A DNA stretch of 64,000 nt, taken from assembly GCA_021432655.1 (NCBI GenBank), contig MU271398.1, positions 3,880 to 67,879 on the forward strand, given 5' to 3'. Position 1 is the first letter of the stretch, and each line of letters opens with the position of its first letter. Source of the stretch: Atractiella rhizophila (lineage: Eukaryota). Below the pieces are notes generated by a model that ran no database searches, had not been told where the DNA came from, and saw nothing but the letters and a program-made list of their open reading frames with translations. The position numbers and the translations under genes were made by a program. Of this stretch, positions 17,459 to 56,200 are shown piece after piece.

Positions 17459-20400
17459 AGTGAAACGCAGAACCAGAATCGGTGACCATCTCCTCGCGAT
17501 TCCTGCTTCGATGAACTACAAAGAAAGTTCAGGACACTCTGACATGCGAAAGGACGTGGCATATCCAGATTGACGCGCTTCGAACTCCGAACTCAGACTA
17601 TCCGGTGCGACGGTAACCGGCTCCACCCCGACCAGGACATATCAAAACTCGATAGAAACATGCATATGAGAAACACAGCTCGAAAGTTGAGTCGAAGGAG
17701 GGCGGTCTCCTTTCTTCTTCATGTACATCACAGGGTAAATCAGAAGGGAACGGGAAGAAAGAATCGCTTGAAACACCACGTTTCCCCGACACTTTTGACA
17801 CAATTGTCCCCTAATCAGGATTGAACTAGTTGTTAGCTGCAATAACATACGTGAAGGTGAGGCGCTTTGCCACGAAAAGCCGGAGGAGAAGGCACTCTCG
17901 GAGGTTCATTCTGCAACAACTCTAAAGCAAAAAGCAAAAGCAACACTTGGGAGCACTCCGGCCTACTTGCCAAAACAAGTAAGCACCTGTTCATGGAAGA
18001 GGCTTGGAGATCTGGTTGGACAGTTGGACACTACGTGATGCCGGGGAAGATTTTCATACTCACTTCCCACCTGCATCAATCGTCCATCTCGGTGCACCGT
18101 GCACCCTGAAAGCTTGGAGTAACTCTTTCACATTTTCAAGTGCATGCCGATCAGCACCATCTGGCTAAATCGAGCACACTGGAGGCTTCCAGCCTTAGAC
18201 TCGGACCAAACCAGAAAAATAGCCATGCACCTGCGGGACAAGTCAGCTTCTCCTTGTCAGCCCGTTGCTCCATGCGCCGTTGATCGTCCATAAAGCAAGC
18301 GAAGCTGTTGAAGACTTTTGCCCACCACAACTTCTCCAACTGATCGAACTCCGGAATCAAAACGGGATCAGGATCTCATCGGACTGGGAAGAAGGTAGAA
18401 TTTGACTGTGCAGTAGATGTTGATATGTTAACAATTACAAAACGGTGTCGATTCAAGTTGGCATCCCCAGTTGTCTTCACTGCTCTGCTCACCTCTCCGT
18501 CTCAGCAGGGACATTCATTGTCAGAAGCAAGAGTGGGAGACGGGAGATGGGAGCAGAAGAGAAATTGAATGCTTCCGTTCCTCTTGATACAGCCCGCCTT
18601 CTAAAATGCACAAAAGTGGCAAATTGCGACCGAAGTTTCAGAGGCATGCAAGGAGGTGCTGAAAGGAATCATCAAGCCAATTCGGGGAGCGTGCTGACGC
18701 GACCCTTAGCCCCGAATCTTTAAGAGACAAAGTATGTAAGCATTGTCACGGACACTCCTTTCAGCAAACACTTGCAAGGATTATACTAGCAATCTCGCTC
18801 TTTCATTACAGCGAGCCCAAATGTTGCTCTAGCTCGCTTGACCGCAGAACAAAAATTTTCTGCTCACTACATAACTGCTCATCAGAAAGCAACCAAAGCG
18901 CGCCGACCTAGGGTTCCCAAGAAAAGAATACAGTTTTCAGGAAGAGCACAGGCGATAGGACCAAGTCGTGCAGACCAAAATTGACCGTCAAGCAGAAACG
19001 GAAGCAGGCGCTAACGCTGAATATCAAGCACATGGATTCCCTCTGCTGAAGATCGTCCAAGTCTTAATCTGGCTCAAGTAGATCATCGTTCCAACAACCA
19101 CCAGTGAAAGAAGGACGGAGAGAAAAGCCCACGCACCGTGCTACATACCAACACCATGATTCTTGTAAAGTTGTTTCCAGGCAGCGAATGAAGCACTTGA
19201 TTTCATTGGAAGCGTCATGCTCCAATGCAACCATCCTCCTGATTCTTAAGTGTTCTAATGCTCATATCAAGTTCTTCTTTCCTTCCCACCTGATAACTTT
19301 CAAATCTGTCATTTTTGATGGACCACAAATCACTTCCATCTCACCCCAAAACTGACAGCGGGAATCACGATTGTGTCTCCAGAGCTTTCTAGGCACTGAC
19401 GAGATCAGGTGTATCCTGGATGCGGAATACGAAAAGCGCCTAAAAGACGAAATTGTTCCTCAACCTGGTGGTCGATACTGCCGCGGAAACAGATGCTGCG
19501 GATATCATTCTGATACGAAATCACCAACCCCAACCCCGACCGCGAAATTGGTCCTTCAAACAGGCCAGAAGAAACAGGACGTGCTTCAACCCCGTTGGAA
19601 CCACTTCCAGTTCCTCCATCCTTGCCCGAGGGTCACAGGCGTACTTTATAGTTATCTTGCTTGGGCAGAGAGAGCAACAAGGCACGCAGAATTTGCACGT
19701 TGCTATTTGTGCAGGTGCTTTCATTCTACTGGCGTCTTGCGACTGATCGAATATTGATCCATAATGATCAATTGCTGTCCTTTATCAGTGTCACCTGATG
19801 CAATTATCTTGTCGTTTCTGACTTGCGGTTACTATCACTTCCGCTGAAGATGTGGAAGGTTGTTGCCCGAGGTCACGTCGAGGAAATATTCAGATCGCAC
19901 AACTGTTCTCCGATGCAGTTTTCTTCTCAGTCTTTTCAAAATTTCGTGTTCCGTCCTCTAACTTGTGATGAATTGATCAGGATATTTGATGAAGAGTCAA
20001 GTTTTGGCCTCGGTTGAGATTGCTCAAGGTGAGCGGTCTGCGCGATACCCGTGAAAGCTACAACGAAGAAGCTTTCAACCAGTTCTCTTGCTCACGGAGC
20101 CTGTTGTCTCCTGCAGTTTCGTCTGCTTTTAGCGTGTTGTTTATGCAGGTTTGTTGATCAAACGAGAGGAACAAGAGCTTCCGCCGCTGTCTTCTGGATC
20201 GACATCTAAGGCAGCTAACGCGTTATGCGTTGCTAATTGAAGTCAAAGAAGGTTTTGTCGATATTTTGCAAAAAGCTCTTCTCTGTCGCTTCTCGTGCCA
20301 ACGGTTGAGGCAACCAGCGGTCGTGATTCAAATGTTCACATGTTTGCACACGTCGGGGGTTAATTTACGGCCTTATCCTGCGACTCAGCTCCGAGCTTAG

Positions 20401-37698: not shown

Positions 37699-37887
37699 GG
37701 GTGTATGTGGTGATTAGACCGAAATGACATTGCGGACACAACATTCCTTACTGAAGATCCAAAATCAAACAGAAGCTAAAACCATAAGACATGGAAGAGA
37801 ATCAACGAAGCGGTTTCATAAATCACAATTTCACCTCTCAATCTGAGGTCACGTCGATTGCTCAGAGCAACCTCCTGTGTAGAGCTG

Positions 37888-39403
37888 TCAAGTGGCAGCC
37901 CAACCTCCCATCATCCCATACCCAGCAGCTGCCTGTCCATGATGAGTAGGCGTCCCAAAACCAACACCCTGTCCATGTCCTCCCACATTCTTCACGCTAA
38001 CTCCGCCAATGGACTGGGCCGCACTCACACGGTGATGTTGGGATGAAGATGGCGTTGCGTTCCCTCCTGAATTGGCGGAGACGGGTGCTCCAACAAAGAT
38101 GTCCTCTTCGTCTTCTCCGGATCCAAAGAGCATGGGATCCAGAGGAGCTTCCGCCCTTTTGGCTAGGTTAGTAAATCCTATCCATCGTTGTGAATTTCGA
38201 TTAGCTTGTGAAATAATGAGGATGGGTAGGAGGACGGACGGGAAAGAAGTTGTTTTTGGTCTTGGTTTTCCCTTTCTAGCTCCCTTATTCGTGCCTGTAA
38301 ATCGGTAATGAGCTGGATGAATTCCGCGCTGCTCGTCCCTGCTCCCTGATGGCAAAAGGAAATCAATCACAACACATGGGAAGGGCGACAACGAAGGCGA
38401 ACCTTTGACAATCGGTCGTTCTCGTCTTTTAGGAGCTTATTCATCTCCTTCAAGGTTTGAGACTCCGCTGCCGTTTTGATCAAGGCAGCAGAGCAATTCT
38501 TGGACAACTTCAACGCTTCGAGGAGGTGTTTCTGTGGCTCACGTCAGCAACTCCTCACAACGGAAAAGGGAAAGGGCCCACATCGATCCCCACGCTCATC
38601 GCCAGTGGATTATTCGATACGCTGCCGTATAACCCCTGTCCCATACTTCCCATACTTCCACCCCCGGCACCCGGACCATTGCCTAACCCTGCTACGGCCA
38701 CACCAATGTTGACATCAGGCTCGTCCATCCTCCTCCTCTTCTTCCCTCGCTGTCCAACCGGCTGTCCATTCGCGTTAACCGTCTCCAGCCCAGCATTGGA
38801 TAGGTCGATGCTGTCCTCTTCCCCGATCGCAGCGGAGCCTTCCGTGATTTGTCCCTTCTTTAACGCTCGTTGTTGCTTCTTCGCAGCTCGAGATAGTTCG
38901 CAGGTTCGGTTGAGCCCGTTCGGGGTGGACCCGAATGATTCGACGGGATGGTAAGCTCGATGGTTTGAGCAGTATGCGAATCCTTTCCCCAAATTGGCAC
39001 GGGTAAACAAATGCTGTTTCTCGCATGACTTGGAAGGATGATAGCAACACACCAGGTTGTGCGCGTGCCATGTAGTCCTGCATCCCATCAATAGCGCAGA
39101 ACACTCAACATGACAAGCCCGGAAATTCCAACAAGGCAAACGGACCTCATAAGTCTTCTTACTCGCTCTATCGTCCTGACTAACAGGAATATGTTGCGGC
39201 TGTTGACCCCCGCCTACGCTTCCACCCAGTCCATGAGCCACCGAAATATTCTCGTCGAACTTCTGCTGCTGCTGGCCCTGTTGCTGTATCGGGGGCGTGT
39301 TGACTGGAGTGTTGACGCTAACGTTGACATTATGGGGATGCACGGGGATGGAAGGGCTCGAGTGTATGCTCAGCTGCGAGGGCTGTATCGTCGTCGCGCT
39401 CAT
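37888..39403 (-). CDS. Hypothetical protein, C-x2-H-x3-H...C motif plus basic tract and leucine zipper (paralogue A)
   Basis: Spliced YEDYMARAQPGFAYCSNHRAYHPVESFG...RTCELSRAAKKQ; NLS-like RGKKRRR; zipper FIQLITDLQARIRELERENQ. Confidence 0.72.
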
Positions 39404-39568
39404 CCTCACGGCAAGCAAGGGAGTCCGATGGTCGACGGGCAGGCAGGGAGATGGCGGATCGCGGATGGGTGCGGTTCTTCTTCAGGGCAGGATGCGGCCG
39501 ACAGCCCTCCGAAACTCAAAATCCACCACAACAATATGGTTATGCATGTGACGGATGGATTGCACGAA

Positions 39569-41547
39569 TTATCGTCTCCAAGAAATCCAAACCTCCTCCA
39601 CGTCCTTCAATCCCTTCTTCAAAAGCACCTCCACCTTCTCCTGCACATCCAACAACTTCTCCCCATTCGTCGTCGGGGGTTCGATGGCAACAAACACGCG
39701 GATCGTCCCTCCATGCTTCAACAACCGCGTCTCTTTCACGCTCAGCGTGCGACCGGGGAGACCTTCAAATCTAACGATGAGATGGCCTGGGAGACGGCGG
39801 ATAGCAGGGTGGGGTCGGTGGCGTAGTCGAGGAGTTGGAGGAGGCTTTCAGATGCCAGCTCGTACGATTGATGTAGTATCATCGCTTCCACCTCTCTGTC
39901 AACCTGTCGTGCATGGAAATGAAGAAATGACTTTACCTGCAACTACGATGCCGCCCAGCGGATCAAGCATTTTATATCCCACTGCCGAGCCGACCTAAAG
40001 ACATCCATATTTCTTCTACCTCTTTCGAAGACGACGACGAAAGAGAACATACGATGGCTATGAGAGCGACTACGGAAGACATAGCATCGCTCCTATGATG
40101 TAGCGCGCTCGCCATGAGTAAATCGCTCTTCTGCTCAATCGCCACTCTCGCCGCTACCACCCACACGAAGCCCTCCATATTCGTCCTTCATTCAGGTGCG
40201 AGGAAGCGGACGCACTCACTCCGCTGGTACAACCACTCTTTAACCAATATCCCAAACACGGCAAACAACGCCGCACGAGCGTCCACCTCTTCCTCTTCTC
40301 CCTCCGATGAGCCGTGGGAATGGAATAGGGAGGAGAAGGGAAGCGAGCTTGGGAGGGAGGGTGAGAGGAGCGTTAGGGAGTGCAGTCCGATCCCTAGCCC
40401 GCCGGAGAGGAGGAGGAAGGAGACGAGGAGTGTTCCGATCGGCTCGAACTTTCCTGTGCACGTCCCCATCCCATTTCCATTTGTTGAGTGGACTATACAT
40501 GGACTGAATAAAGAAATTGGTTTGAAAACTAATATGAAAGGAGAATTCGTGGATTTAGCTTTGACACGTATTCCTTATATATTGCGGGTTTGTTGACATG
40601 CGAACGCGCTGTAAAAAGAAATAGTTTTGCATTGCGTTTGAGGAGCAGAAGCGATTACTAAATAGCACTCCAAAAGGTGTGAGATATCTGCATTGGTCCT
40701 ACAGCTGTTGTACAACCAAAGAACGGACAGGTGAGATATTCACGAGGGTCTGGTATGGCTGTCGTCCGGACCGTCCAATCATGAAGCAGTAGAACGATGA
40801 GAAGAAAGCGAATTCGTGATCAATGGATATCGTTGACTCAAGAGCCATTCAACGAAATAGCTATCCATTTCGGACAGGGGAATTCTCAGTGTCGTGTTCT
40901 CCTTCACACTCTCGCTTTCGGGGAAAGAGTAAGGGCTCTGTTTAAGGTGCCTCCCTCCTCGTCTACTTGACGTACACGAAAGATCATACGCAACAAGATA
41001 GCGAGCACGCAAAACCCAATAGGAAGGCAAAGTGGACAGGAGAGCGCAAGTCGTGTAGAAATGGACTCTTCATTTATGACGCAAAGGACCATTAGTCGTT
41101 CTATAAACCAAGCACTTCTCGTCTCCATTCTAAGACGATTCAGCAACTCCACTTCCACGCGACGCTCTCCAGCGACAGCCTTCTCTTCTAGTTCTAGTAA
41201 TCCAAAGCACAACAACTTCTCCTCATCCACACTCCCACGTGGAACTTCAAAGGACGAAAAAAAGCAAGCATACCTTTTCCCCATGACCATCTCTTCGCTC
41301 CCTCACTTGCATCTACCTTTCCAGATGGTGCCGACACCCACAAGAAACCGACGGTGACACCATCAGCGACCAAGTCCGTGGCGCTGTGTGCTGCGTCCGC
41401 TATCAGGGAGGTGGAGTTGAGGAGGTACCCGCCTGCGAGTTTGGCGACTGTGAGGAAGACGTTGGTGAAGAGACCTAGGAGCGCGGAGGTTGTGGATGCG
41501 CTGGAAGCGTGGGAGTGGGAGTGTGCATGGGAATGAGTATGCGACAT
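39569..41547 (-). CDS. Cation diffusion facilitator, Mmt1/Mmt2-like metal transporter
   Basis: His-rich N-terminus HTHSHAHSHSH, SLIADAAHSATD, GKGKFE, KEWLY, LMASALHHRSDAMSS and C-terminal dimerisation domain. Confidence 0.87.
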
Positions 41548-41747
41548 TGCGAGCGTGCTCCTTTGCTAAGGAAGTGAAAGGGCAAGGGAAAGAAGGTGGT
41601 CGTAAGAGTAGACTCAAAACCTGCGAGATGTAGACGCGCCGCAGACGCAAAGCGACCAACAGTCATAAATTGACAACATACTTTACACTTCCACCGTAAT
41701 ATCCAGCTGCGATTTGAGTAGCGCCATCTGCGTCTAGGCGAAGCAGC

Positions 41748-44700
41748 ATGCAATCCCCCGCCGCGGTCTCTCCCACCTCACCTGCTTTCCCACACCCACA
41801 CCCACACCCCCACGAGCACGCCTACTCCGAGTCTGCCACCCCAAAGCAGTCCTTGGACCAGCAGCCCTTCTCTGATGCGCCGTTCGCACAAGCACCTGCT
41901 GATGGAACAGTGGGAAGCAATCTGATCAGTGGCGCTCTGAGGGAAGGGGAGAAGGAAGTCGTCCTCCCAACTGTTACTATTACTTTTGAGGGGAGGACTG
42001 TCAAGGCTAGGATCGATAAAGGGGTATGTCTTTCTCTTTCTATTGAAATGCGAAATAGAGCAGGGAGGACGCGCTGGGTGATGGGAAAGTCGTTTATTGA
42101 GTAGACGTAGCCTGAACCCATTGCTTCTTTAATGCATTCAGAAAGGAGTAGTGTCTTTCACGGAGACGTCTTCTGCACATAGCTTGCGTCCCTTCAGCCT
42201 TCTTTCCGTCATATTGGATGTGAATGTGCATGACCTTCAGGCTGCCCTGATTCATTATAGTCGAAAAGAATTGATCAAGTAACTGAAGTCATGCATAGGT
42301 ACCGCTCGTAGAAATCATCCGTCAGCTATGTACATCACCCACCCTAGCGGTGAAAGACCCGCCATCCATGTTCTGTCTCCGAGATGCACTCACGAACGAG
42401 CTCATCACGCCGTCCACTCTCCCACGAAAACTAGAAGCGCGGACCAACTTCCGCCTGACCTCCTCGCCCTCCATCGACGCCGCCGACTTCTCCTCCCGGC
42501 TCCGTCTGGGCCTATCGTCAGGCAAGTCTGGCGAAGCGGAAGTGAAAAAGAGCTTGTTTCAACTCAAGAACTTGCTTCGAGAGATGGAGTTCTCCAAACA
42601 CTTTTTGGAAAGGGACGGGTTGAAGGAACTCGTCAAGGTTGTGAGAGTGGCGAGTGGGAACACGCTCGCGTACGCGTTGACGTGTGCGCAGAATTTGTTG
42701 GAGTTGGAGATTGGACAGGGGAGGAAGGGGAAGGGAGTGGCGAGCGAGGATTCGGAGTGGGATGGAGAGTTGAATTGGGATGGATGGGAGAAGGATGGTG
42801 TCGATGAAGACTTTGTCAAGAGGATCGTCCAAATTCTAGTCGACCAAACTCTCGTCAATATCTGTAGACCTGCGACGGCAATCATTCGGTTCTTCGTCAC
42901 TGAATACGGCAAATCTTTGGAAGAGGACTCCTACACTATTCCATCGAGGTTCAGTCCACCTATTGTCGAGATTTATCCAATGTTGAGAGCTCAGAAAGGA
43001 TTCTTCAAAACTCTCGTCACGAGGTTGAACCATCAGGGAGGAGGAGACAACATGCTCATCAACTCCAGTCTCGGTCTCCTCACCAGCCTCATTCGTTTTG
43101 CGGTTGGAAGAGGGGAATTGGGGTTGGGGAAGGAAGACGATGAGGGTGAGAATGGTGATGGACGCGGGGAAGGACTTATGGATGAGTTGGAGAGATTGGA
43201 AGTAGGCAAGGCAGTCGTAGTGCGTTTATTTCTCCTTACAGTCTCCATGGTACCTAACAATCACGCTAAAGCGTTTGATGGAATCTCACGCTTCAGACGA
43301 TGTCACCCCTTCCATTCTGCAGTTCCAAGCCGCTATCATCTTGCATTACCACAACCTCATGCGAACCGCTGTCAGTCCCGACGACCCTGTCCAATCGTCC
43401 ATCCTGGAGATGGTATACGCGAAAGCGAAGCTGGCAGAGCTCACCGACTTGGACATTGAAGAGAGCAAGAAATGGAAAGCGATAGGATTTCAGATGAACA
43501 ACCCCTGGTGGGAGTTCGATCGCGTCGGAGTCCTGGGACTGAAGACCATGAAAATGTTTGCGGTCGGCCACCAAGAAGATTATGTCAAGGTAAGTTGCCC
43601 TCTTATCCGCTACAAGATTTTCCTCTCACTGTCGGATGAAACGCATCGAATAGTTGGTCCTTGAGCAAGTCAATAGAGCAGAGGATCGACGATGTCCATT
43701 CGCCAAGGCATGCATAGAAGTCATTGAAATTTTGGCGGAGCTGTTCGACTTCAACACTGGCGTATCGCAGATGCCTACATCCTTTCTCCCCTTCACACTA
43801 TCGTTTTGGCGCGTTCACGCCCTGGCTCTAAAATTTGTTCGTCAACCGCCCAACCGTTTCCTGTCACTGACCCCGAGATTGGATAGTTCTTTAGAATGTG
43901 GGCCGAAAGCGGATCGACTGATAAAGACTTTGCGAGAGTGTCTAATCTCGTTCGCAGTCAAGTGTATTCAACTTTCGGCGCGCAAGTCCAGAAGACTTGG
44001 TATGAGGTAGAAAGCGAATTTCAAGAAAGTGAATATCGAGTGGTGAGGGACCGACAGATTCGAGAACTGGAAATCGAGGACGAATTATTAAGCAAAGCTC
44101 CTGTGAGGTAAGTACCTCCCATTCGAATGATATCCAACTGACAAAGCCCAGAAACCTACGGGGCCGCCTGTACCGAGAATCCTTCGAGTTCATCAGAGCT
44201 CAACGCATCAACTGCTTACACGAAGGCGCTTGGTTTCTCACCACCTCCCCCACCACGCAACTCCATCCCAACATGCGGGACAAAGATGGAAGGAAAGGGT
44301 CACTGGCACCCGTCCGCGTCTTCCGCTTCTACAGGTTGGCTGCCAACAAGAAATTCCTTCATTTCGTGGAAAGCACTGAGAGGGTACCCATCCGCGGCGG
44401 CTTGGATGACCTTCCAGAGAAGAGTGAGCGATTGATCGCTGCCCTTAGTCTTTCATTTCTGACTGTGCATTCAGTCGACATCGCCCAGATTCTTGATGTT
44501 GTGCCGAACTCAATCCCGCCAGCAGACAGCCAACGTACTCCCCGCGCTCGTGGCTTCTCCCTTAATGCTGCTCCAAACCAAACAAATCTACTGGGTTCAC
44601 AACCGAATAACCGATTGAGTACCTTCTCCGTTTCATCCGAGTCGGTCGCCTCGTCTGGAGGCAACCTGAGCTTCAACCTCCTCTCGTCTGAAGGCGTTAT

Positions 44701-45004
44701 CGCCACCATGCACGCTTTAGACTCTTTCACCTACAGCGAATGGATCGATGGTCTCAGTCTGCTGAAGAAGGACGGAAATGGTCATATCATTACGAAGGAG
44801 AGCGCTGATCTTGTGCATATTTTGACGGAAATCGGTGTGAAGATGAAGCTATTAGATTTGAGGTTAGTCCCCTACGTCATCTAAGAACAATGTTACGCTA
44901 ACGCTGACCGTGGAATTAGTGGTGAGAAAGTAGAAATACCGGCGCAATTGCCAGTACCTTCCGTACCTCTGTCGTGCGACTTCTACTATGCTGATACCCC
45001 TTAA
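41748..45004 (+). CDS. ELMO/CED-12 domain plus PH-domain protein (fungal Elmo)
   Basis: GNTLAYAL, KWKAIGFQ..NPWWEFDRVGVLGL, RCPFAKA, QRINCLHEGAWF and WIDGLSLL...KLLDL motifs. Confidence 0.9.
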
Positions 45005-45386
45005 AAGTATCCAAAAATATTTATAGCTCAATACTGGCTGATCCCACTCGGCGCAATTTATCAATGCAAAGTGGGTGATCATTAGGATGTGATCTGAATA
45101 TGTACATTTTCTGCCCAATGACAAGTGACTGCTGTCACAGACGTAATCATGGAGCAGTGTAGAGCAGTGGTAAAGCTGAGCGTGTTTCGGAGAAAGGAAG
45201 AGCCAAGAGCATGAAGTTATTGGGAAGATGCTACACCAATCAGTGGAAGGTTACAGGAAGGTCGAATCCACTACTCAAGAAGATTCCTGTCAACGAAAGG
45301 ATAGAATGCGTACCGCAATGACGCGGAGCTGAAGCTGGTAAAGGCTAACAGAAAATAAGTTATGGATATTGGAGCTTTGTTCAAGT

Positions 45387-46877
45387 TCACTTCTCAGGCA
45401 AGAAGAGGCTCTCCAAGGTATTAAGATGGATATTTCTATCTGAACAGACCTCTTCGAGAGGTCTGTAATCCTTCTCGTCGAAATCGTATGTGCGGATTTT
45501 CACGTCGAGCTCCTTCAGGTTTGGAAGATTGAGCCTGAGGAAGGTATTGCGGAACGCTTCTTGCCTTGTTTCTCGAGGAGGTGAAGCTAGTGATGCTTGA
45601 GGTCGAGGTTGAGGAGGACGAGGTGGGGTGCTTATTCTAGCCGGGGTTTTAGACTTCGAAGACATGGCCAACATAGAGTTGTACGATGGAGCTTGGTGTC
45701 CAGGATTCTTGAAAGCCTCGTTACTGCCCATTCCAAACGCGACAATTCGCTCTGGTATAGCTGAGAGGAGGTTGGTAATGGCTTCGCAAGGAGCCTTCTC
45801 TGTCGCTTCCCTCGTTATGTACGGCCCGTTGAGCTCGAGAACGCGAATCTTGGAAACAACAGCGAAGAGATTGAGTACATCGGCGAGTGGTGCTAAGTCA
45901 GGATTGGAGGAAGTTGCCCAGACAGAAGATTGTCCGAGACAGAACCTAAAGGTTTGCAGGTTGGACAGATCGAGCGATTGAAAGGTGGCTACGAAGGGCC
46001 TGGATGGATTGGAATATTGCGATCGTGACATCGAAAGGTTAATCTCTCGCAACCTTGGAGAGATAGGTCGGATTCTGGAGATACTCTCAAGGGTATCGAG
46101 GGCTGTATCGCATTTGTTAAAAGTGACAGAGGTCAAGTTGATGCTCGCGTCTGTCCTAAAGCAGGCGAAACCCTTGGGCCAATTCTCGCACACGAGGGAA
46201 GTGACAAAAGTCATCTCCGACAAAGCCGTGTTGACTTGATCCTTCAAGGAGGTATCGCTCCATAAATACAACGTGGGAAGTCTGATTCTAAGCTCGTATG
46301 CTTGCTTGGGACCATCTCTCTTCAAGACATCCAGGAAGCCAATGAGGTCGAATGTAGCTTGAGACGAGTTGCCAGCATCGACAATGAGGCAACGAAGGTT
46401 CTTGAGCTGTTGAAAAACTGCTTGCGCTGTAGAGCGAGTGGTAGACGCTTTTCCAGAGCCAAAGCAGCGGAAGGTCAGGTTCTTGACCAGATCCTGATTT
46501 CCCATAGCCCGTGGCTTTCCTACGCCCAAATGTGGTCCTGAGGCAGCCGACGAAGAAAGAGGAGCGGCCTTCATTTTCTTGCAAAGAGCAACAAAGTCCT
46601 TCACCTGGCTCTTTGACGCGATATTGACATTCTGCAGGAGGAGACGCTGGGCTGGACTGGTGAAATCTCGACAGACGAGACTGAGGGTCTGGAGTATGGG
46701 ATAACTTTTCATTTCGAACTTCCCACCTCGATTTTTTTGATCCGCTTCTGCCGTGGTCGATGCGTATGTTGCATAGGTGAAAATGAGGTGAAGGATCTCG
46801 TGAGGAACATCCTTGATCCCGACTCGAGGAGGAATTGTTGCTGGTGGCAAACAGCCTAGACCTTTTCGACCACCCAT
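45387..46877 (-). CDS. F-box protein with LRR-like C-terminus (single long ORF)
   Basis: IKDVPHEILHLIF...LSLVCRDFTSPAQRLLLQNV F-box-like pattern; LxxL repeats (LKNLRCL, LSNLQTF, LPNLKEL). Confidence 0.8.
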   Translation of the reverse strand: MGGRKGLGCLPPATIPPRVGIKDVPHEILHLIFTYATYASTTAEADQKNRGGKFEMKSYPILQTLSLVCRDFTSPAQRLLLQNVNIASKSQVKDFVALCKKMKAAPLSSSAASGPHLGVGKPRAMGNQDLVKNLTFRCFGSGKASTTRSTAQAVFQQLKNLRCLIVDAGNSSQATFDLIGFLDVLKRDGPKQAYELRIRLPTLYLWSDTSLKDQVNTALSEMTFVTSLVCENWPKGFACFRTDASINLTSVTFNKCDTALDTLESISRIRPISPRLREINLSMSRSQYSNPSRPFVATFQSLDLSNLQTFRFCLGQSSVWATSSNPDLAPLADVLNLFAVVSKIRVLELNGPYITREATEKAPCEAITNLLSAIPERIVAFGMGSNEAFKNPGHQAPSYNSMLAMSSKSKTPARISTPPRPPQPRPQASLASPPRETRQEAFRNTFLRLNLPNLKELDVKIRTYDFDEKDYRPLEEVCSDRNIHLNTLESLFLPEK

Positions 46878-49040
46878 AGTTGTCTGCACAACCAGCGTCA
46901 TCAGGATTCGTCTCCTTTGAACAATACGCAGAAATTCCAACCTCTAACAGCGGACGAGCAACCATGAACTCTGCGCACATCTGAGGCTGCCTCAGGCTGA
47001 AGAAAGCCATCCCACGAACTTGCTTGGCGAAGCCTGTCGCTCAAAATTCTACCCTGAATTTGTAAACGCTGAGGGCAAAAGGCTTATAACATTGATACCC
47101 AAGCGAAATGTGCTGTCGGACGTGAGACCAATTCTGTGGAAAACAACCATTCGACTCGTTCTAAATGCAATGATAACCCGAAGGATTGAGGGATGGGAGA
47201 ATTCCATGGAGGAGAAAGGACCAGGGTCAACGGTATCAGCTGCCATTCACAAACGGGAAGTGGCGGCTCCGTTAGGTCATGGAAGCCTCCCACCGTTTCC
47301 ACCCCATTCAGTCAACCGTGGGCCTGTGTGGGCCCATCTTTAGCGGAGCCATCCGGCTGCATGTTTGTGAACTCAGATCGTTCACAGCTTCAGTTCTCTG
47401 ACGTTCTCGGAAGATAAATTCAAGTTCTAGATTGTTCCAGGAGCAATTCCTGTCACTGGATTGTGGTGTTCAAATAAGACTGTATCAATCGATTATCAAA
47501 TATCAAAATGCCATGATAAATGATAAATGTAATGCACCAGCTCTCTAACTCTGACATTCAAGTAATCGAATGTCAAGTATCAACGAGATCACTTCGGAGT
47601 GTGCTCCCTCTGGGTAGTTACCCCAGCTCATTCCATCCAAGATTGTAGCAAAACCTCTGTTTCATAAGACAAAGGGCGACCCTGTAGTCAAAAAGGGGCG
47701 GGAAATAACTCAGGCACACGTTAATGCACCATAATAGAGTTACGTGAGCCACCACAATTGCTCAATTCGAGTGAGTAGCAAAACTCACGTGATCACATTC
47801 TTCCATGAGCTTTGAGCTTGGATTCCTCCTCCGATATTAGCTACCTCCTCCTACAATATTCCTACCTCCCTAACCCATACAAATCTCACAAGTGCGAAAG
47901 TGACGGCTCAAGCGCTTAAAGAGTTTGGTTGTCCTTCGGACTCCTTCCTCGCGATCTAGGGTTAGGCTGTTTCAGGTTCGTTCGTTGTTCCACTTCAGAC
48001 ATTTTATTTGGGTATTGTTCATAATATTATTGAGTATTAGATTTTAATGAAAAATTAATGAAAGGAAGGATCAGGAGGATTCGACTGAAATATACCGCAC
48101 GCTGCAATGTTTTCTGTTTTTTTGTGTGTGGTTTCATAATAAGCGGATCGGTGTAAAGTGATGTTAACTATTTTGAAAATCTCTCAATTTGTCAGGCGTG
48201 ATTTGACCACTGTGCCTGGCCTTGTTGCTTCAAAGATTTTAATAGGCTCAACAGGATATGGAAGTTATCCAAACCTGATAGTCTGAGCTGAAGGATCAAG
48301 GGGCCGTTTTGTTACATGGTGACATTGTATTCCATCTTCTGGACTCAGATGTTTGCATAGCCGCTTCTGTATCGCATGAAATGTGATTATTTCCTCGCGC
48401 AACTGTACATCTGTCAAGTGCGCTTGTTGAGACCTTTACGACAAGTTGAGCTTTTACACATGAAATGATGATAACTGCCTCTAGGAGGTAGGATATGCTG
48501 TGTATCACTCTATGAAGGATATGCAGCAGAAACATACTTGTTCTCTTTGTTTTCCCCTGAAGGCTCTCCCCTTCATGCTCAACTCACAAAAATAAGCTGA
48601 TGCAGAAGATTAGCTCACAGTCTCATGTACAGATTGACCGTTTAGGTATCATGTCAGGCTTCTGTAAAGGGTATAGACTGAGTTACTGATTCCGGACACC
48701 TCAGGTGGGTTTCCCTTTCGATAATCGAACATCTGTTTGGACGTCCTCCTCAACCGAGCTGATTGTCAATCATTCGGGAGGTTGATTTTTTTCTAGAATT
48801 TATGCCCGCGTACTATTTCTCGACTATGCATAGTGACGAGAGCGCACTGCTGCGTTTTAGAGGCAATCATAATTCTTATATCCGCATGAATTTCTGTTGA
48901 GGCTTCCTCCTTGCAGTCACGTTCCAGTGTCTTGATGTACTGGGGATCGGCTACCAGATATATATGTGGACAAGCAATGGTCAATGCTGTCTGATTCTTA
49001 CATGACACAACAAAGTTGACAACCAATGATTTAACTCTTC

Positions 49041-50144
49041 TCAGGTCCCTCCAAGCTTCTTCAGATCCCGGGCTAAAATATCCACGACCTCCTCCCACTT
49101 CCTCTTCCTTTCCTTTGCTTCCTCAACGCTTTCCTGACCCACTTCTGTCTTACTAACAAACCTATACGTCTCCGCCATTCCCTCGAACATCCTCCCACCT
49201 CCCGCCAATCCCGCATCTGAGAATGCCTTTGAAATCTCGTCCATCTCTCCATGCCACCTGAACGCCTTCGCGAGCGAGTTAGGGAAACCGTTCGAGATCC
49301 TGCTTAGAGAAGACGGGGCGTGGGAGGAAAGAGCGGAGGAAAGGGACGGCAATACGTCGTATTTCGATGCTAGGAGGGCAGCATTTACCCTACATCACGA
49401 TACAAGCAGAGAGTCGTCAGCGATGAAATATAGAAAGCTGGCGCACGTCTGACTGACGCAGAAGGTACGGACTCACCCTATAGCCAGGAACCCTTTCGAC
49501 ATACAAGCAAACGCCAGCTTAGTTGCACTCGCCTGCCCATTTCTGTCTCCCACCACCTCAATACTCTCCCCAAAGCCAGACAAGAGAAGTTCGACCTCCT
49601 TCGCCTTCTCTCCCGAAATGACGAGCAGAGGGCAAGATCCTTCTTTCCCCTCTGCCTTTTCAGGGACGGTGGCGGGACCCCCGATGATGCCTCCATCTAC
49701 GAAAGCAATCGAGGTATCCGCAAAACACCTCTCCGCCTCCTCAGCTGTCGATGGAGCGATCGCATTGAGATCAACGAAATATTTCGTCCTCACTTTCTCC
49801 GCACCTATCTCTTTTGCAATTGCACCGAATTTCTGTGCCGTTGGAAGCGCTTGCTCGTTCACCAGAACGCTGAGGACGACATCACACTTCTTCAGGATCT
49901 CAGCGTCGTCGGACAGATCGATGAGTGATCCTTGATCGACGAGACCAGAGCAGAGCGAACGAGTGCGTGCAGAACGGGAGGAGAGGTTGGTGTATGCTTT
50001 CAAAGGGGGAGAATGGGAAGAGAGGAGGTAGGCTATCAACGAGGTGCCCTGAGAAGCGAGACGTCAGATTTGAAATAATGGGAAAGTGAAGCCATGGAAC
50101 TCGACCATTGAGCCTGGATAAAGAATCCCAACAGTGTAAGACAT
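49041..50144 (-). CDS. NAD(P)-dependent 6PGDH/3-hydroxyisobutyrate dehydrogenase-like protein with DUF1932-like C-terminus
   Basis: VGILYPGSMG, CDVVLSVL, FVDLNAIAP, FVDGGIIGGP, GQASATKL..SKG and AFRWHGEMDEI motifs. Confidence 0.85.
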
Positions 50145-50878
50145 TTTAGAGTAGTTATGTCTAGGTGAGTACGGGACAGCTTTTGGTCCTTCATGCAATT
50201 TTCATGGACGACGTTGATACAGTCATTCCAATCAAGGTGAGATGAGTAAGACTCCGCAACCCTGGGACTATTCTTGGACTCCATTTCGAAGCAAAGCCTG
50301 AAGAGCCTGCTTTGAGCGCTTGAGTGACAGCTTGCTGTGTCCAACACGTCCACATTTGTTACCGGGAGCAGTGATGGGGAGAAGAACAAAGGCGGATTGG
50401 CGGATTGGATACTCCACAAGTGTGGTGAAACAGGACTCGGCCGGAACAATACACAGCAGAGAAGTTGACGAGCAAGCAAGTCAAGGCAGGCGGGATGGAA
50501 GAAGGGACAGTTGAAGGTTTCGATGGTGCGTAGCCCAGTTGTGGATGGGAGAGGTAGAAGACGTTCTTTGGAATCTTCAAGTCGCGTTCTGTTTTCTTGT
50601 TTTCGAGTTGGCGACGGGCCATCTTTACAAAAAAGACATGGATTCCAACACGTCTATACTCCTGAGGATAGTAGGTATACAGAACAATACTTCCATTTCC
50701 ACTTTGACTAAATGGTGTTGTGTTGCGAATTCACAAAAAACGAAGCGAAATAACGAAGAATCAACCTTCAAGTTATGAGCACTAAAATGCTGATATAGAT
50801 GGATAAAATGTGAGCACTGAACACTGATTGTTTGGACAACATTTATCTATAGACGGAACGAATGATGGTTCCGTCTCC

Positions 50879-52146
50879 TTAACGCGTTGAACGAGAATCG
50901 AGGGTTGGCGGGAGCGTGAGCGTTGGGCGGGCTGGGTTACGTTCGAGCTCTGTGATGCGTTGAAGCAGTGTTTGAATGTAACGATTTTGCTGTTCCGTTC
51001 TCACTCTTGAGCTTCCAGTGATAACGGAAGCATGAGAAGAGAGACAGACCTGCTTTAAATCGTCCTCTAATTTATCGTTTCTGAGCATGAGGGCTCTATT
51101 CTCGCTTCTCATACGCTCCAGATCCGTGTAAACACGGCTCTTGAATGTTTCGACTGCCCTCTATTTAGCATCGTGCCAAGTTCAGTCATCCATAATTGGA
51201 GACGAGAAAGGACACAGACCTGCAGTTCGACGGAGGGACTGACATCCCGGTCCCTCGACCGTTCGTCGTCCATAGACAGTTTGGGACGGACGTCTCGATA
51301 GAGATCCGTCGAATTGTGCAGCTTTGGCAACTGGAGTCTAGTTGGCGCATCGAAAGCGGGCCGCGGAGCCTATGAATATTAAAGGAGATTGAGTGGAAAG
51401 CTAGCGGAGAGAAAGGAAGCTTGGATGAAAGGGAAAAAGGGAGATTGAGCGTAGCTCACCTCGTACCCTGGCGGAGTTCGCTTTCTCTTCAGGTCGTAGA
51501 GTGGAGGGCTGGATGTGGCATGTGTTGGTGCGCCGGCATGAGAGTAGGGAAGTTCATCTCTCTCCCTCATAGGAGGGAGAGGAGTTCGTATATCATTGGG
51601 AGAGATAGAGAGTTGGTGAGGAGGCGCATGGCTTGTCCCAATTCCCACGATGACCGTTGTGCTCGTCGGGCTCCTACCTCCACTAGTACCATCTTCGGTT
51701 GTCACTTGCATGGAGGATCCATCTTCGCCGAATGTCCCACGACGGTTGGCAGACTTTTTTGCCCTATCTGTCTTTTTCTTTAGTCGCGAGGCTTTGCACG
51801 TCAAATAGTTCCCTCCGAATTCCTCTGCCACGTGTTAAAAAGTTCTGAGGTCAGTAAAGATTTAGAGAAAAGTGGGGATGGGGAGGGGGAAACAAAGGAA
51901 GTAAATGCACCTATCGGGTGACCTGCTTTGTGGTGACTATTTGAAAGAGAAAGGTCAATATTTCGTAACAAAACGAGATGGGACAGCGCCGACGAACCTG
52001 CAGTACCTCTCTCCAGGCTGTAGATGAGTCTTTTCATACTCCTCCCTCGCTGTGACGGCAGAGGCGATATTGAGAGGAGGCTGAGAGGTCCCTCGTGCTG
52101 AAGAGCTGTCTTCTTCTGACATTCTTCGCTCGTTCGTGTCGCTCAT
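50879..52146 (-). CDS. Hypothetical protein, C-x2-H-x3-H...C motif plus basic tract and leucine zipper (paralogue B)
   Basis: Spliced EEYEKTHLQPGERYCSHHKAGHPIEEFGGNYLTCKASRLKKK; LKRKR NLS-like; zipper MRSENRALMLRNDKL...YIQTLLQRITELERN. Confidence 0.72.
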
Positions 52147-53207
52147 GTGGGAAGATGGTCGAAGATGAAAATATCCTTGAACGGCTTGGGGTTGCGTTCC
52201 GCCGACCGATTCGAATTTGACGGCGCTCAAGCCTTTGGCTTTAGTAGAAGACGCCTGCACGATCCTTTTAACCGTGATAAAGAAGCGAGGCTCCTTCGAA
52301 CCCAGGTTGAAGGTGGCCACAGAATGAGCTGGTGGATGTAAGAGGGATTATGAACCGTTGGACGTGTGTGTCTGCCTAAAAGGCATTCGCGTGAAGAAGC
52401 TTAGAGTTGGATGGAAGAACTGTCCGAAAGTCCATGACATGATGGCTTGGGTTCAGTTCGACATTACCCAAAGTGCTTTCCACGGCGGGGAGTTCCGTGA
52501 CGGCTCCGTCGGCTATTCCCTCCCCTTTCAATCAGATCTCAGCATCTTCCCGAAATTGCGTTCGCCCTATTCAGCCTTGCGACTTTGACGAATTTGCTTC
52601 CACAGTCCACAGCATTCTCACGTTTAAGTCTAATCGTACGTAGGCTCAGTACGAGCATCCTGACGCCTTACAGGCTCACTCAGAATTATTCCACCTACTG
52701 TACTGTCAACGCGTTGAACACTTGCAACACCCCACGCGCTTTTACGCTCAAGCTCGCCGCACATGCTCCTTGCCGGCTTCAGCTCCCGGAAAGCTTGCGA
52801 CCTCGAGGAGTAGATGAACGGTAATGAAGGAAACGTTGTCGCGCAATATGGAGATGGTAATTAGGGCAGGATCTGGTTAATCCTTGCATAGATAGCATGG
52901 GAAGAATGGAACGGTATTACTCCCCGGTCATGAAAGAGGTCGGGAGGGAAACGTCGGTGGACATTACCTTGGACATTACCTTGTAGCGGTCGGAGGACTG
53001 ATGGTGGAGAACTACTGCACATGAATTGAAGCCCAAGATGGTCCATTCCATGTGCTAAACAGTGGAATGACTGGATACGTATTACATCATACATCTGGAA
53101 GCAAGCCAAAGGGATAGATTCAATTTGGGTCACACACACATTACTTTTATGAAAGTCAATGACATGAGTAAACGAAGCAAAGAGCTGACTTGGAAGGATC
53201 ATTCGGA

Positions 53208-56200
53208 TCAATCGTACAGCAATAATTTCCCAAGCAAGGCTCTTGGGGTGGCAGCATGTAAGTTAGTGAGCTCTTTGAAGTGAACCATATCCACAGGACG
53301 GATCAGCTTCAAAAAGACATGTCGTTGATCGTGGGAGATCTTTTCGTTTTGCAGACAATCATAGCACTGCACAGCATTACATAACGTCGTCAATATTGTC
53401 CTGTAGGTGTGAAAAGAGAGGACGGAAAGTAATGAATTAGAGAACCCACCAGGTCGTAGCACCCAGCGCAACACGCGCAACACATCCAAGCCCCCTTTAT
53501 TGACTTCATGCAGAAATCGCTATTCCCACATCAAGCACATCAAACTCTAATCCTCAACCAGATGAAAGAAAAAGGGGTTGGAGCGGATAAGGTATCCCGA
53601 CACACCAGATGACAGCCTTGTGCATGATTTCCTCTTCTTGCGAACCACCGATGCTGTTGAAAGTCCTCAACTCAATGGCGGATCGATCATCTCTCCCTCC
53701 AGCTCCGTTGGAACCCCCAACGCCGCTTCCTGCCTGGCTCCCCCTGTCCCTCGACGAAAACTGTCTCACACTCGATCCTCCATCGGATCCTGAACCGATT
53801 GTTTGTTGATACAAGATTGGTAAAAGACGTGGAAGCCTCGGCAGGGGTCGTTCGAGGGGTCGTGGTAGGCGGAGGAAGGCGTGCAGGGGATCATGAATGA
53901 TCTGCGAGCTCTTCTCGCAATCCTCACAAAGGTTGTAAGAAGGGTCGGTCGAACAGTTAGCGCACAACCACCTCATCCCAACAATCGCACGATCGCACCC
54001 ATTACAAAGCACATCATCGTGCACGAACACGCTGTCTCCTTCCCCAGGCCTTCTGAACGTCATAGGCTCCAGCGCCAATGCGGCGGACACCTGTCCGTTA
54101 TTCATCCCACCCGCATTAATGAGGTAAACTGGTGGGGGAGGTGGAGGACCATGATGCCTTCGATGAGGCGGTGGATGATGTCCCCAGAAATGGTGTGGAG
54201 GACCAAAGGGTGGGCCATGACCATAGGGGAAATCGTGGAACCTGAAATCTGGTCGTTCTCTTCGTTCAAGGTCCCATCTCTCCCTCTCTTCCCAGCCTCC
54301 GCCGCGACGCCTCCTAGAAGAAGAAGCGGAGTCATCATCCCGTCCCCCTTCCGTGAGTCGACGTGCGCGATCGTTAGCTTCTGCTAATGCTTCTGGTTCC
54401 ACTGGAACTATTATCTTGAGCAGAATGTGTGTTTGATCATGATATCCATCCGGAGACGAGATCGGAGGGCTAATGGACTCGCATTTGGCACAGAGATCGA
54501 AAGAAGGGCAAACTGCGCAATGAAACCTGTCATCGTTCATCAACCAATGACTCCTTTTCGCTTCACTGATGCAAGCATAAGACATACCGAGGACCAACAA
54601 TTTCTGCCAAACACCCAAAGCACATAACATCGACATGTTTCTGCGGTCCACTGAGGGGCATGACGGGCAATTCCGACCTTCCATTCCTCTCATACACTCC
54701 TGTGGAGCTCCCGCTACCACTTCCAGAGGATGAGAAACTAGCATCCGGGCTACCCCTGATCCCTCTAGCGCGCAGTATCGCTTCTCTAAACTGCTCCGAC
54801 GTGACGCTCTGAGAGTCCACAGTGGAAGAAGCTTCTCCAGGACCAGATGGCGAAAGCTCGACGAAACGAGGTGGTGGTGCCGGACGATCTGGTACTGCGA
54901 GGAAGGCATGTACTGGGTGAATGTCCTCGATAGCCAAACACCCAAAGCACATAACATCGACATGTTTCTGCGGTCCACTGAGGGGCATGACTGGCAATTC
55001 CGATCTTCCATTCCTCTCATACACTCCTGTGGAGCTCCCGCTACCACTCCCAGAGGACGAGAAACTAGCATCCGGGCTACCCCTGATCCCTCTAGCGCGC
55101 AGTATCGCTTCTCTGAACTGCTCTGACGTGACGCTCTGAGAGTCCACAGTGGAAGAAGCTTCTCCGGGACCAGATGGTGAAAGCTCGACGAAACGAGGTG
55201 GTGGTGCCGGACGATCGGGTACTGCGAGGAAGGCATGTACTGGGTGAATGTCCTCGATGCGTCGATAACAATTAAGGCAGAGTTCAAATTTAGGACACGA
55301 AAGGCCTATCCACCTTCATTAGAGCAGAGGACAGAGGGCAGTAAAGAAAGAGAAACGCACATTTGAAACGGTTGTGAAGTATAGGCCCAGTTCCACAAAT
55401 GGAACACCTAACGACATCCGCATACTCCACCTCCCTCCACTCTCCCTCTTCACTCTTCATGACCTCTCCAAACACATGTCTCAACACGCTACCCCTCCCA
55501 CTTCCACTAATCACGCTTCCTTCTCCCTCATCCACCCCATTCGCCGAAGCTCCCGAACTGCTGCCAGAAGAGCTCTTCTCCTTCTCAGCGCATGCAAGCG
55601 CATGCTTCAGACCCTCGCTCTCGATACACATCGCGCACAGCTCGTATCCTCCAGTCACCAATCCTCCTTCTCCCGCTTCATCCAACGTCTCGAAATCCCT
55701 TCTCAGATCCCTAGAAGCTAACTCCGACCCATCCTCAATGTGCACAGGGATAACGTGCACGCCAGGTTGTAAAGGTCCTTGCTCCGGCACATGAACGACC
55801 TTAGGGTACTCTTCCCTGGTCGTCCCCACCTCTTCATCATCGTCCTCATCTTCGTCCTTCGGAAGAAGTGGACCGCACGACGTACACACGTACCGAATCT
55901 GTTCCATATTATTCTTACAATTCGAGCATCGCAACAAATAGTTCGGTAAACTCGACAGATGAGATTTGGACAGCAACGATCTCCTCTCCAGCCTGTCCGT
56001 GGCAGACGAAGGTTCCTCCGTGACCGCTATCTCGACCTCAAACTCTTCTTCAGGGGCAGACTGAGGCCCCAAAGGAAGAGAGTTCTGTCTCGACGAAATG
56101 GTGCTACCATTGTCAGCGGTGAGGGCAGGGGTCCTTCCCGTTCCCGTCGAATGGGTGATAGAATAATCGAACGATATCGGGCTGACGCTTCGTTTCCCCT

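Follow-up and report, generated by a model that had tools for sequence, protein, structure and literature searches.

The two genes described here, which we call A and B, lie on the minus strand of a 64,000-nucleotide (nt) stretch of the genome of Atractiella rhizophila (GenBank assembly GCA_021432655.1, contig MU271398.1, positions 3,880 to 67,879), referred to below as the window, with all positions counted from its first letter. A and B are real, transcribed, unannotated paralogues which share an unnamed motif of Cys, His and basic residues. Gene A occupies 37888..39403 and encodes 402 amino acids (aa) in six exons (39403-39146, 39077-39053, 38982-38582, 38531-38403, 38345-38240 and 38177-37888), its coding sequence running from the ATG at 39403 to the stop at 37888-37890. 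Gene B occupies 50879..52146 and encodes 303 aa, likewise in six exons (52146-51998, 51936-51911, 51824-51460, 51369-51220, 51160-51050 and 50989-50879), from the ATG at 52146 to the stop at 50879-50881. No in-frame ATG lies further upstream in the open frame of either gene. The exon-intron models were put together from reading-frame pieces and then checked over 37700-52300 on RNA contigs from Logan, which represent four public runs, some of them root metatranscriptomes with 95-99% similar relatives. For both genes the models are based on the joints seen in RNA (in three or four of the four runs for gene B) together with the spliced open reading frame (ORF), which is uninterrupted in both.

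All ten introns are of the GT..AG type (CT..AC when the skips are read on the plus strand) and measure 50-90 nt; skips of all ten were seen in the deep run X9. In gene B, introns 1 (51997-51937), 2 (51910-51825), 4 (51219-51161) and 5 (51049-50990) are skipped in all four runs and intron 3 (51459-51370) in three, while in gene A intron 3 (38581-38532) is skipped in three runs, introns 1 (39145-39078) and 4 (38402-38346) in two, and introns 2 (39052-38983) and 5 (38239-38178) in a single one, the very deep X9. Each gene contains a micro-exon, of 25 nt in A and 26 nt in B, and the RNA joints around these are short-sided, with 22-26 letters. Intron 5 of gene B (60 nt) keeps the reading frame and contains no stop codon, and its retention would add 20 residues in the middle of the zipper described below; the four runs all skip it. 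The differences to close relatives listed inside gene A were synonymous in four of four cases, a small and selected sample which comprises the best-supported rows only, with 315 further rows over the whole window. An earlier note on this DNA, made from its letters alone, had predicted the splicing of the two genes, and the RNA contigs bear this out for every one of the ten introns; the start and stop coordinates match exactly, the minus strand being an addition to what the note gave, and the protein strings which the note quoted for A and B are found letter for letter in the joined exons.

The motif spans residues 85-133 of A (38867..39151) and residues 35-79 of B (51763..52044). In each gene it is cut by introns 1 and 2, and it is these introns which, as had been claimed before, break it up in a six-frame view. 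When the spliced proteins were compared by blastp, only the motif was aligned, with 23 identities in 44 positions, one gap of four residues and E=6e-10. A Smith-Waterman alignment of the two motifs scored 109 against a mean of 23.7 (standard deviation 4.6) for shuffled sequences, and none of 2000 shuffles reached this score; the earlier claim of a shared motif thus concerns a similarity far beyond chance. It can be written as aromatic-x2-3-QPG-x2-Y-C-S-x-H-[RK]-A-x-H-P-[VI]-E-x-F-G-x(3-7)-T-C-x2-S-R-x2-K-K. The four Cys and His residues of A which are candidate ligands, the same as those implied in the earlier note, C99 (38971-38969), H102 (38962-38960), H106 (38950-38948) and C122 (38902-38900), are all kept in B, as C49 (52002-52000), H52 (51932-51930), H56 (51920-51918) and C68 (51798-51796), so that the spacing is C-x2-H-x3-H-x15-C in A and C-x2-H-x3-H-x11-C in B. 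A basic run begins two residues past the last Cys of the motif in both proteins and reads SRAAKKQQRALKK in A and SRLKKKTDRAKK in B.

The introns within the motif do not occupy the same places in the two genes. Those of A stand in phase 0 before D87 and in phase 1 in G95, whereas those of B stand in phase 2 after C49 and in phase 1 in E59. We also compared the flanks of A and B by tblastx for signs of a segmental duplication, and at E<=1e-3 no second pair of paralogues came to light. Since the intron positions differ and no other pair of flanking genes is shared, the duplication is probably old and the motif has probably been kept by selection.

Both proteins further have a linker and a C-terminal region with the character of a coiled coil. 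A run resembling a nuclear localization signal (NLS), which the earlier note had placed in a disordered linker, is indeed present in each protein, as KKRRR at residues 175-179 of A (38729..38743) and KRKR at residues 171-174 of B (51478..51489); read from the letters, both might serve nuclear import. AlphaFold2 predicts for the C-terminal part of A, of which the public protein P0001 (see below) served as the query, three helices at residues 229-250, 253-270 and 277-316, with predicted local distance difference test (pLDDT) values of 65-85 by block, and disorder for the rest. From this model and from heptad counts, a helical or coiled-coil region is predicted for residues 229-316 of A (38149..38531, with introns 4 and 5 inside), and heptads point to a leucine-zipper-like coiled coil at residues 231-284 of B (50939..51160, with intron 5 inside). 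In B, 11 of the 15 a and d positions over 54 residues are hydrophobic, which none of 5000 shuffles equalled, and the zipper is continuous, with V, V, M, L, L, Q, L and L at the d positions and Asn at two of the a positions. The coil of A is broken by a Gly-rich turn; its helix 2 has hydrophobic residues at 7 of 11 a and d positions (176 of 5000 shuffles) and its helix 1 at 4 of 7 (429 of 5000). The best alignment of the two C-terminal regions gives a common register, [LM]-x3-N-x2-L-x3-N-D-[RK]-L, followed by an indel of four residues and I-x2-L-x2-R-I-x-E-L-E-R, and the exon of the first helix is bracketed by phase-0 introns in both genes (43 aa in A, 37 aa in B). The score of the C-terminal comparison, 38 against 30.1±5.3, was reached by 178 of 2000 shuffles and is not significant. 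Of the zipper that had been proposed for both proteins, the heptad periodicity therefore stands in each, but a sequence similarity between the two zippers does not.

Are A and B known in public protein collections? An exhaustive phmmer search with exon 3 of A against 1.84 billion representative proteins (E<=0.001) returned two proteins; the query lacked the first 11 residues of the motif, and a motif of 44 residues is weak at that size of database, where even B would not pass. The first of the two, P0001, is a protein of 223 aa named in its source 'hypothetical protein, Atractiella rhizophila'. It matches the end of the exon with 100% identity and corresponds to residues 180-402 of gene A, starting at the internal Met180; its model (38582-38728 region) omits three upstream exons, including the 25-nt micro-exon, and the motif is absent from it. 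We judged the second, P0002, a bacterial repeat protein of 2102 aa with six matches over about 36 residues, to be spurious. Word-based protein searches gave none of 325 candidates for exon 3 of A (234-2000 aa) and, for the 282-aa read-through ORF of A (155-494 aa), P0001 as the single hit among 1034 candidates. With exon 3 of B (213-2000 aa) none of 223 candidates matched, and no public model of gene B of at least 213 aa was found, shorter ones having lain outside this search. The description of the genes as hidden was thus apt, with the public A model starting past the motif and no B model of at least 213 aa found.

We also scanned metagenomes with a degenerate DNA pattern for [YF]C-x2-H-x3-HP-x-[DE]-x-FG, which misses members interrupted by introns, and no member was found among the 19 loci obtained. 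All 19 had in-frame stops or no downstream T-C-x2-S-R and were set aside as chance matches. Among the papers listed on Atractiella rhizophila none dealt with these genes, and the motif cannot be searched for as text. What had been put forward as a candidate new protein family is therefore so far two paralogues in one genome, without a relative beyond it among the 1.84 billion representatives searched with exon 3 of A, and these searches do not show a family beyond this genome.

Within the window, an ORF on the plus strand (19356-19754) contains at 19420-19481 the string E-Y-E-K-x9-Q-P-G-G-R-Y-C, which is like the start of the B motif, and then diverges into Cys-rich text with C-x5-C-C-x2-H. 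As it continues differently and was matched by tblastn at E=13-24 only, it was not counted as a third member. The resemblance may be due to chance or to a third copy that has decayed or diverged.

The lack of relatives in the 1.84 billion representatives and in the word-based searches would fit fast-evolving orphan genes without a conserved molecular function, in which the motif is nothing but the slowest-decaying remnant of a duplication. The predicted disorder of most of both proteins and the absence of a segmental duplication in the flanks would agree with this explanation too. It is hard to reconcile, however, with a motif which is still 52% identical while the rest has diverged beyond recognition, with intron positions which suggest that the duplication is old and that the motif has been under selective constraint since, with transcription and correct splicing of both genes in several runs, including the root metatranscriptomes with their similar relatives, or with the synonymous nature of the four listed differences in gene A. 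We consider it very improbable.

The searches for named domains and structures in Pfam and PDB, like those with HMMER and in the ESM Atlas, were made exon by exon, the motif of A being scanned without its first 11 residues and that of B in pieces, as it is spread over three exons. Pfam hmmscan of the exon translations gave no match at E<=1 and none for the motif at E<=10. At E<=10 the C-terminal half matched coiled-coil families only, all of them below threshold (SIKE, TMF_TATA_bd, TSC22 and bZIP_1, the last with 11.9 bits against a cut-off of 27.6, E=0.25). Among 177,635 PDB sequences (E<=10), an A+B profile used in hmmsearch and, as single pieces in phmmer, the motif of A and half of that of B gave 4, 2 and 0 rows, chance matches only; the profile was a two-row alignment of short pieces, a MAFFT alignment of the whole exon-3 pieces having misaligned the motif and been discarded. 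The best score of the motif in the ESM Atlas was 0.85, with no family, and the structural neighbours which P0001 has there are long helices of a generic kind, with template-modelling (TM) scores below 0.5. The earlier note had not recognized the motif as a named domain, and this has held in these scans, which found no meaningful match, and judged from its sequence in this way, exon by exon, the motif corresponds to no named domain.

Of the known patterns, zinc site 2 of the plant SBP domain (SQUAMOSA promoter-binding protein, PF03110) comes closest. This likeness was picked after the fact among many zinc-finger types and then compared with papers. The SBP domain is described as having two zinc sites with eight ligands, Cys3His and Cys2HisCys (PMC3601960, PMC7488452, PMC5578124), and is called plant-specific in the literature. 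Its zinc finger 2 is given as C-x2-C-x3-H-x11-C (PMC3601960), and this site, Cys-Cys-His-Cys, is overlapped by a bipartite NLS (PMC7488452, PMC5578124). The spacing agrees exactly with that of B, C-x2-[C/H]-x3-H-x11-C. We set B by eye, with no gaps, against the MEME consensus of the domain (its 'best possible match', Table 3 of PMC5578124), from -2 of the first Cys to +1 of the last, a stretch of 23 positions. Six of the 23 are identical (Arg at -2, the first Cys, His, Glu, Phe and the last Cys) and four are conservative (Tyr/Phe, Ile/Leu, Thr/Ser and Lys/Arg); in A, Tyr moreover stands for Phe ahead of the His, and Arg-Thr-Cys takes the place of Arg-Ser-Cys. Site 2 and the motif further have in common an aromatic residue just ahead of the first Cys, a Glu and a Phe at the same two positions, Ser or Thr before the last Cys and a basic, NLS-like run from the last Cys onwards. 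The second ligand is His in A and B and Cys in that site, and the last spacer of A has 15 residues rather than 11. The first zinc site, Cys3His, is wholly absent from A and B, which have no Cys in residues 1-98 and 1-48, respectively, and only four candidate ligands each. A and B belong to a fungus, whereas the SBP domain is called plant-specific, and they add a distant C-terminal coiled coil.

Could the motif descend from the second zinc half of an SBP domain? The first site would then have been lost, the second Cys exchanged for His and a leucine zipper joined, and the proteins would bind DNA in an SBP-like manner. The spacing of site 2, the NLS which overlaps it, the identical and conservative positions in B and the basic residues that come next in both speak for such a descent. 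On the other side stand the choice of the lead after the fact, the missing first site, the insertion of four residues which A would need, and the searches. Pfam hmmscan returned no SBP match for the motif exon of A at E<=1 or E<=10 (for B, the pieces were scanned), and no SBP chain appeared among the PDB sequences at E<=10 with either the A+B profile or the single-sequence pieces. A literature search for PF03110 together with 'fungi' brought up papers which, by their titles and the beginnings of their abstracts, are plant-centred. Membership of A and B in the SBP family is not supported by the profile tests of their sequences, and we regard descent from it as improbable. The same low probability attaches to the bolder proposal that SBP-like zinc modules would here be seen for the first time beyond the green plants, as a stand-alone 'half SBP' of site 2 only (Cys-His-His-Cys), which fungi joined to a leucine zipper and in which dimerization makes up for the missing first zinc sub-domain in DNA recognition.

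Three other systems resemble A and B in part. The proteins recall bZIP factors (bZIP_1, PF00170) by a basic run with S-R-x2-K-K and by a zipper with Asn at a positions. In bZIP proteins the basic region and the leucine zipper are contiguous. In A and B, more than 100 mostly disordered residues separate the basic run from the coil (125-137 and 251-316 in A, 71-88 and 231-284 in B), and their layout is therefore not that of bZIP. With this discontinuity and the sub-threshold bZIP_1 score given above, we rejected a bZIP identity. The retroviral-type CCHC knuckle, C-x2-C-x4-H-x4-C, has first ligands which are similarly tight, a Cys followed after two residues by the next ligand and a His a few residues on. 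A and B differ from it in having His as the second ligand, a spacer of 3 between the two His and a last Cys 11-15 residues away, and they do not match it in Pfam. The CHHC finger of U11-48K, GTSF1 and TRMT13 has the same set of ligands as A and B, Cys, His, His and Cys, and a review describes it as a small independent module which binds nucleic acid via basic residues (PMC9539491). Its spacing there, C-P-x4-H-x9-H-x3-C, differs from the C-x2-H-x3-H-x11/15-C of A and B, which have no Pfam match to it, and according to the same review GTSF1 orthologues have not been reported in fungi (PMC9539491).

We hypothesize that a lineage-restricted gene of this root-associated basidiomycete was duplicated long ago, that A and B are the two copies, and that they encode dimeric nuclear regulators, a reading to which we give a probability of roughly 40%. 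Each protein would be mostly disordered and carry two structured modules. The N-terminal one, of about 45 residues, would be a knuckle holding a single zinc ion by Cys, His, His and Cys, and its last ligand would stand at the start of a basic helix for contact with nucleic acid, for nuclear import or for both. The second module would be a parallel coiled coil at the C terminus, through which the proteins form a dimer, and the long flexible linker would let the dimer place its two zinc-knuckle/basic arms on DNA or RNA. Zinc binding, nucleic-acid binding, nuclear localization and dimerization are thus properties that we infer for A and B; the heterodimers which the earlier note suggested are likewise putative. 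In favour of this reading stand the transcription and splicing of both genes, the significance of the motif alignment with its four kept Cys and His residues, the synonymous differences in gene A, the heptads of B and the register common to the two coils, the phase-0 introns around the exon of the first helix, and the ligand spacing of B, which equals that of SBP zinc site 2 with its overlapping NLS. A low-confidence AlphaFold2 model of the A motif, computed from the single sequence, places a helix at residues 115-138 (residues 20-43 of the modelled piece), spanning C122 and the basic run.

Several observations weigh against this hypothesis of a dimeric zinc-knuckle regulator. The mean pLDDT of the motif model is 56.0 and the Cys/His part (piece residues 1-19) is unstructured in it; the helix contains only one of the four ligands, unlike classical treble clefs; and the last spacer has 15 residues in A against 11 in B. 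The treble-clef-like finger proposed in the earlier note, which would call for a zinc knuckle and two ligands from the first turn of a helix, is not supported by this model, whose quality is too low for a fold search. As no homologue was found outside this genome in the protein and metagenome searches, the conservation of the Cys and His residues is that of two sequences, for which four residues kept at 52% identity are mildly informative (0.52^4, about 0.07). The heptad statistics of the A helices are weak and the C-terminal regions of A and B do not resemble each other significantly. Lastly, introns 2 and 5 of gene A are read through in two low-depth contigs of run X1, intron 1 being spliced in the same contig, and intron 2 (70 nt), if retained, would cause a frameshift inside the motif. 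In a relative 95-99% similar, part of the RNA must therefore be unspliced or retain introns.

Several of these and earlier results could also be accommodated if the motif held no metal. A and B might be coiled-coil scaffolds or adaptors in which the approximately 45 residues form a docking peptide or a folded mini-domain for a protein partner and the basic runs are targeting signals only, nuclear or other. No Pfam zinc-finger family was matched, the Cys/His part is unstructured in the model, the weak C-terminal matches are all to generic coiled-coil families under the cut-off, and the Atlas neighbours of P0001 are equally generic. For some homologues of GTSF1, moreover, the CHHC fingers are reported to mediate contacts between proteins (PMC9539491). 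Against a motif without metal, all Cys and His residues of the A motif are kept in B, with a spacing which is known from a real zinc site, and a basic run directly adjoins the last Cys in both copies. We see the scaffold explanation as possible, if rather doubtful.

What would these proteins mean for fungal biology? If the motif is a real zinc/basic module which binds nucleic acid, an unnamed DNA- or RNA-binding domain would be added to the fungal regulators, in a lineage of little-studied root endophytes (Atractiellomycetes, Pucciniomycotina). If the resemblance to SBP reflects descent, the plant-specific status of SBP-box factors would need revision; if no relatives exist, the case is a modest one of two lineage-specific paralogues. 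We rate the novelty as moderate: two hidden paralogues share a motif without a name, and its resemblance to one half of a DNA-binding domain of plants is intriguing, though unproven. The gene structures carry a message of their own, in that conserved domains can escape annotation where micro-exons of 25-26 nt interrupt them. The motif is missing from the public A model, and no B model of at least 213 aa was found; censuses of domains based on proteomes would therefore never see A and B. Genes split in this way are likely to be mis-annotated elsewhere too. On the improbable 'half SBP' reading, a family of the A/B type could be widespread in fungi and yet invisible in proteome databases, its motif being split by micro-exons.

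Two features of the surrounding DNA may be added. Directly upstream of gene A and on the same strand lies a gene for a cation-efflux (CDF) transporter (about 39570-41650, minus strand; Pfam Cation_efflux, E=9e-11), whose stop is about 150-170 nt before the ATG of gene A. It contains an intron of 820 nt (40453-41272), skipped in three of the four runs, whereas all others seen at the locus have 50-91 nt. Further along, a tandem duplication with a unit of 327 bp, about 92% identical at the protein level, is found at 54607-55261 on the minus strand; it lies inside an ORF (53554-55305, minus strand) which matches a ZZ-type zinc finger in two stretches.

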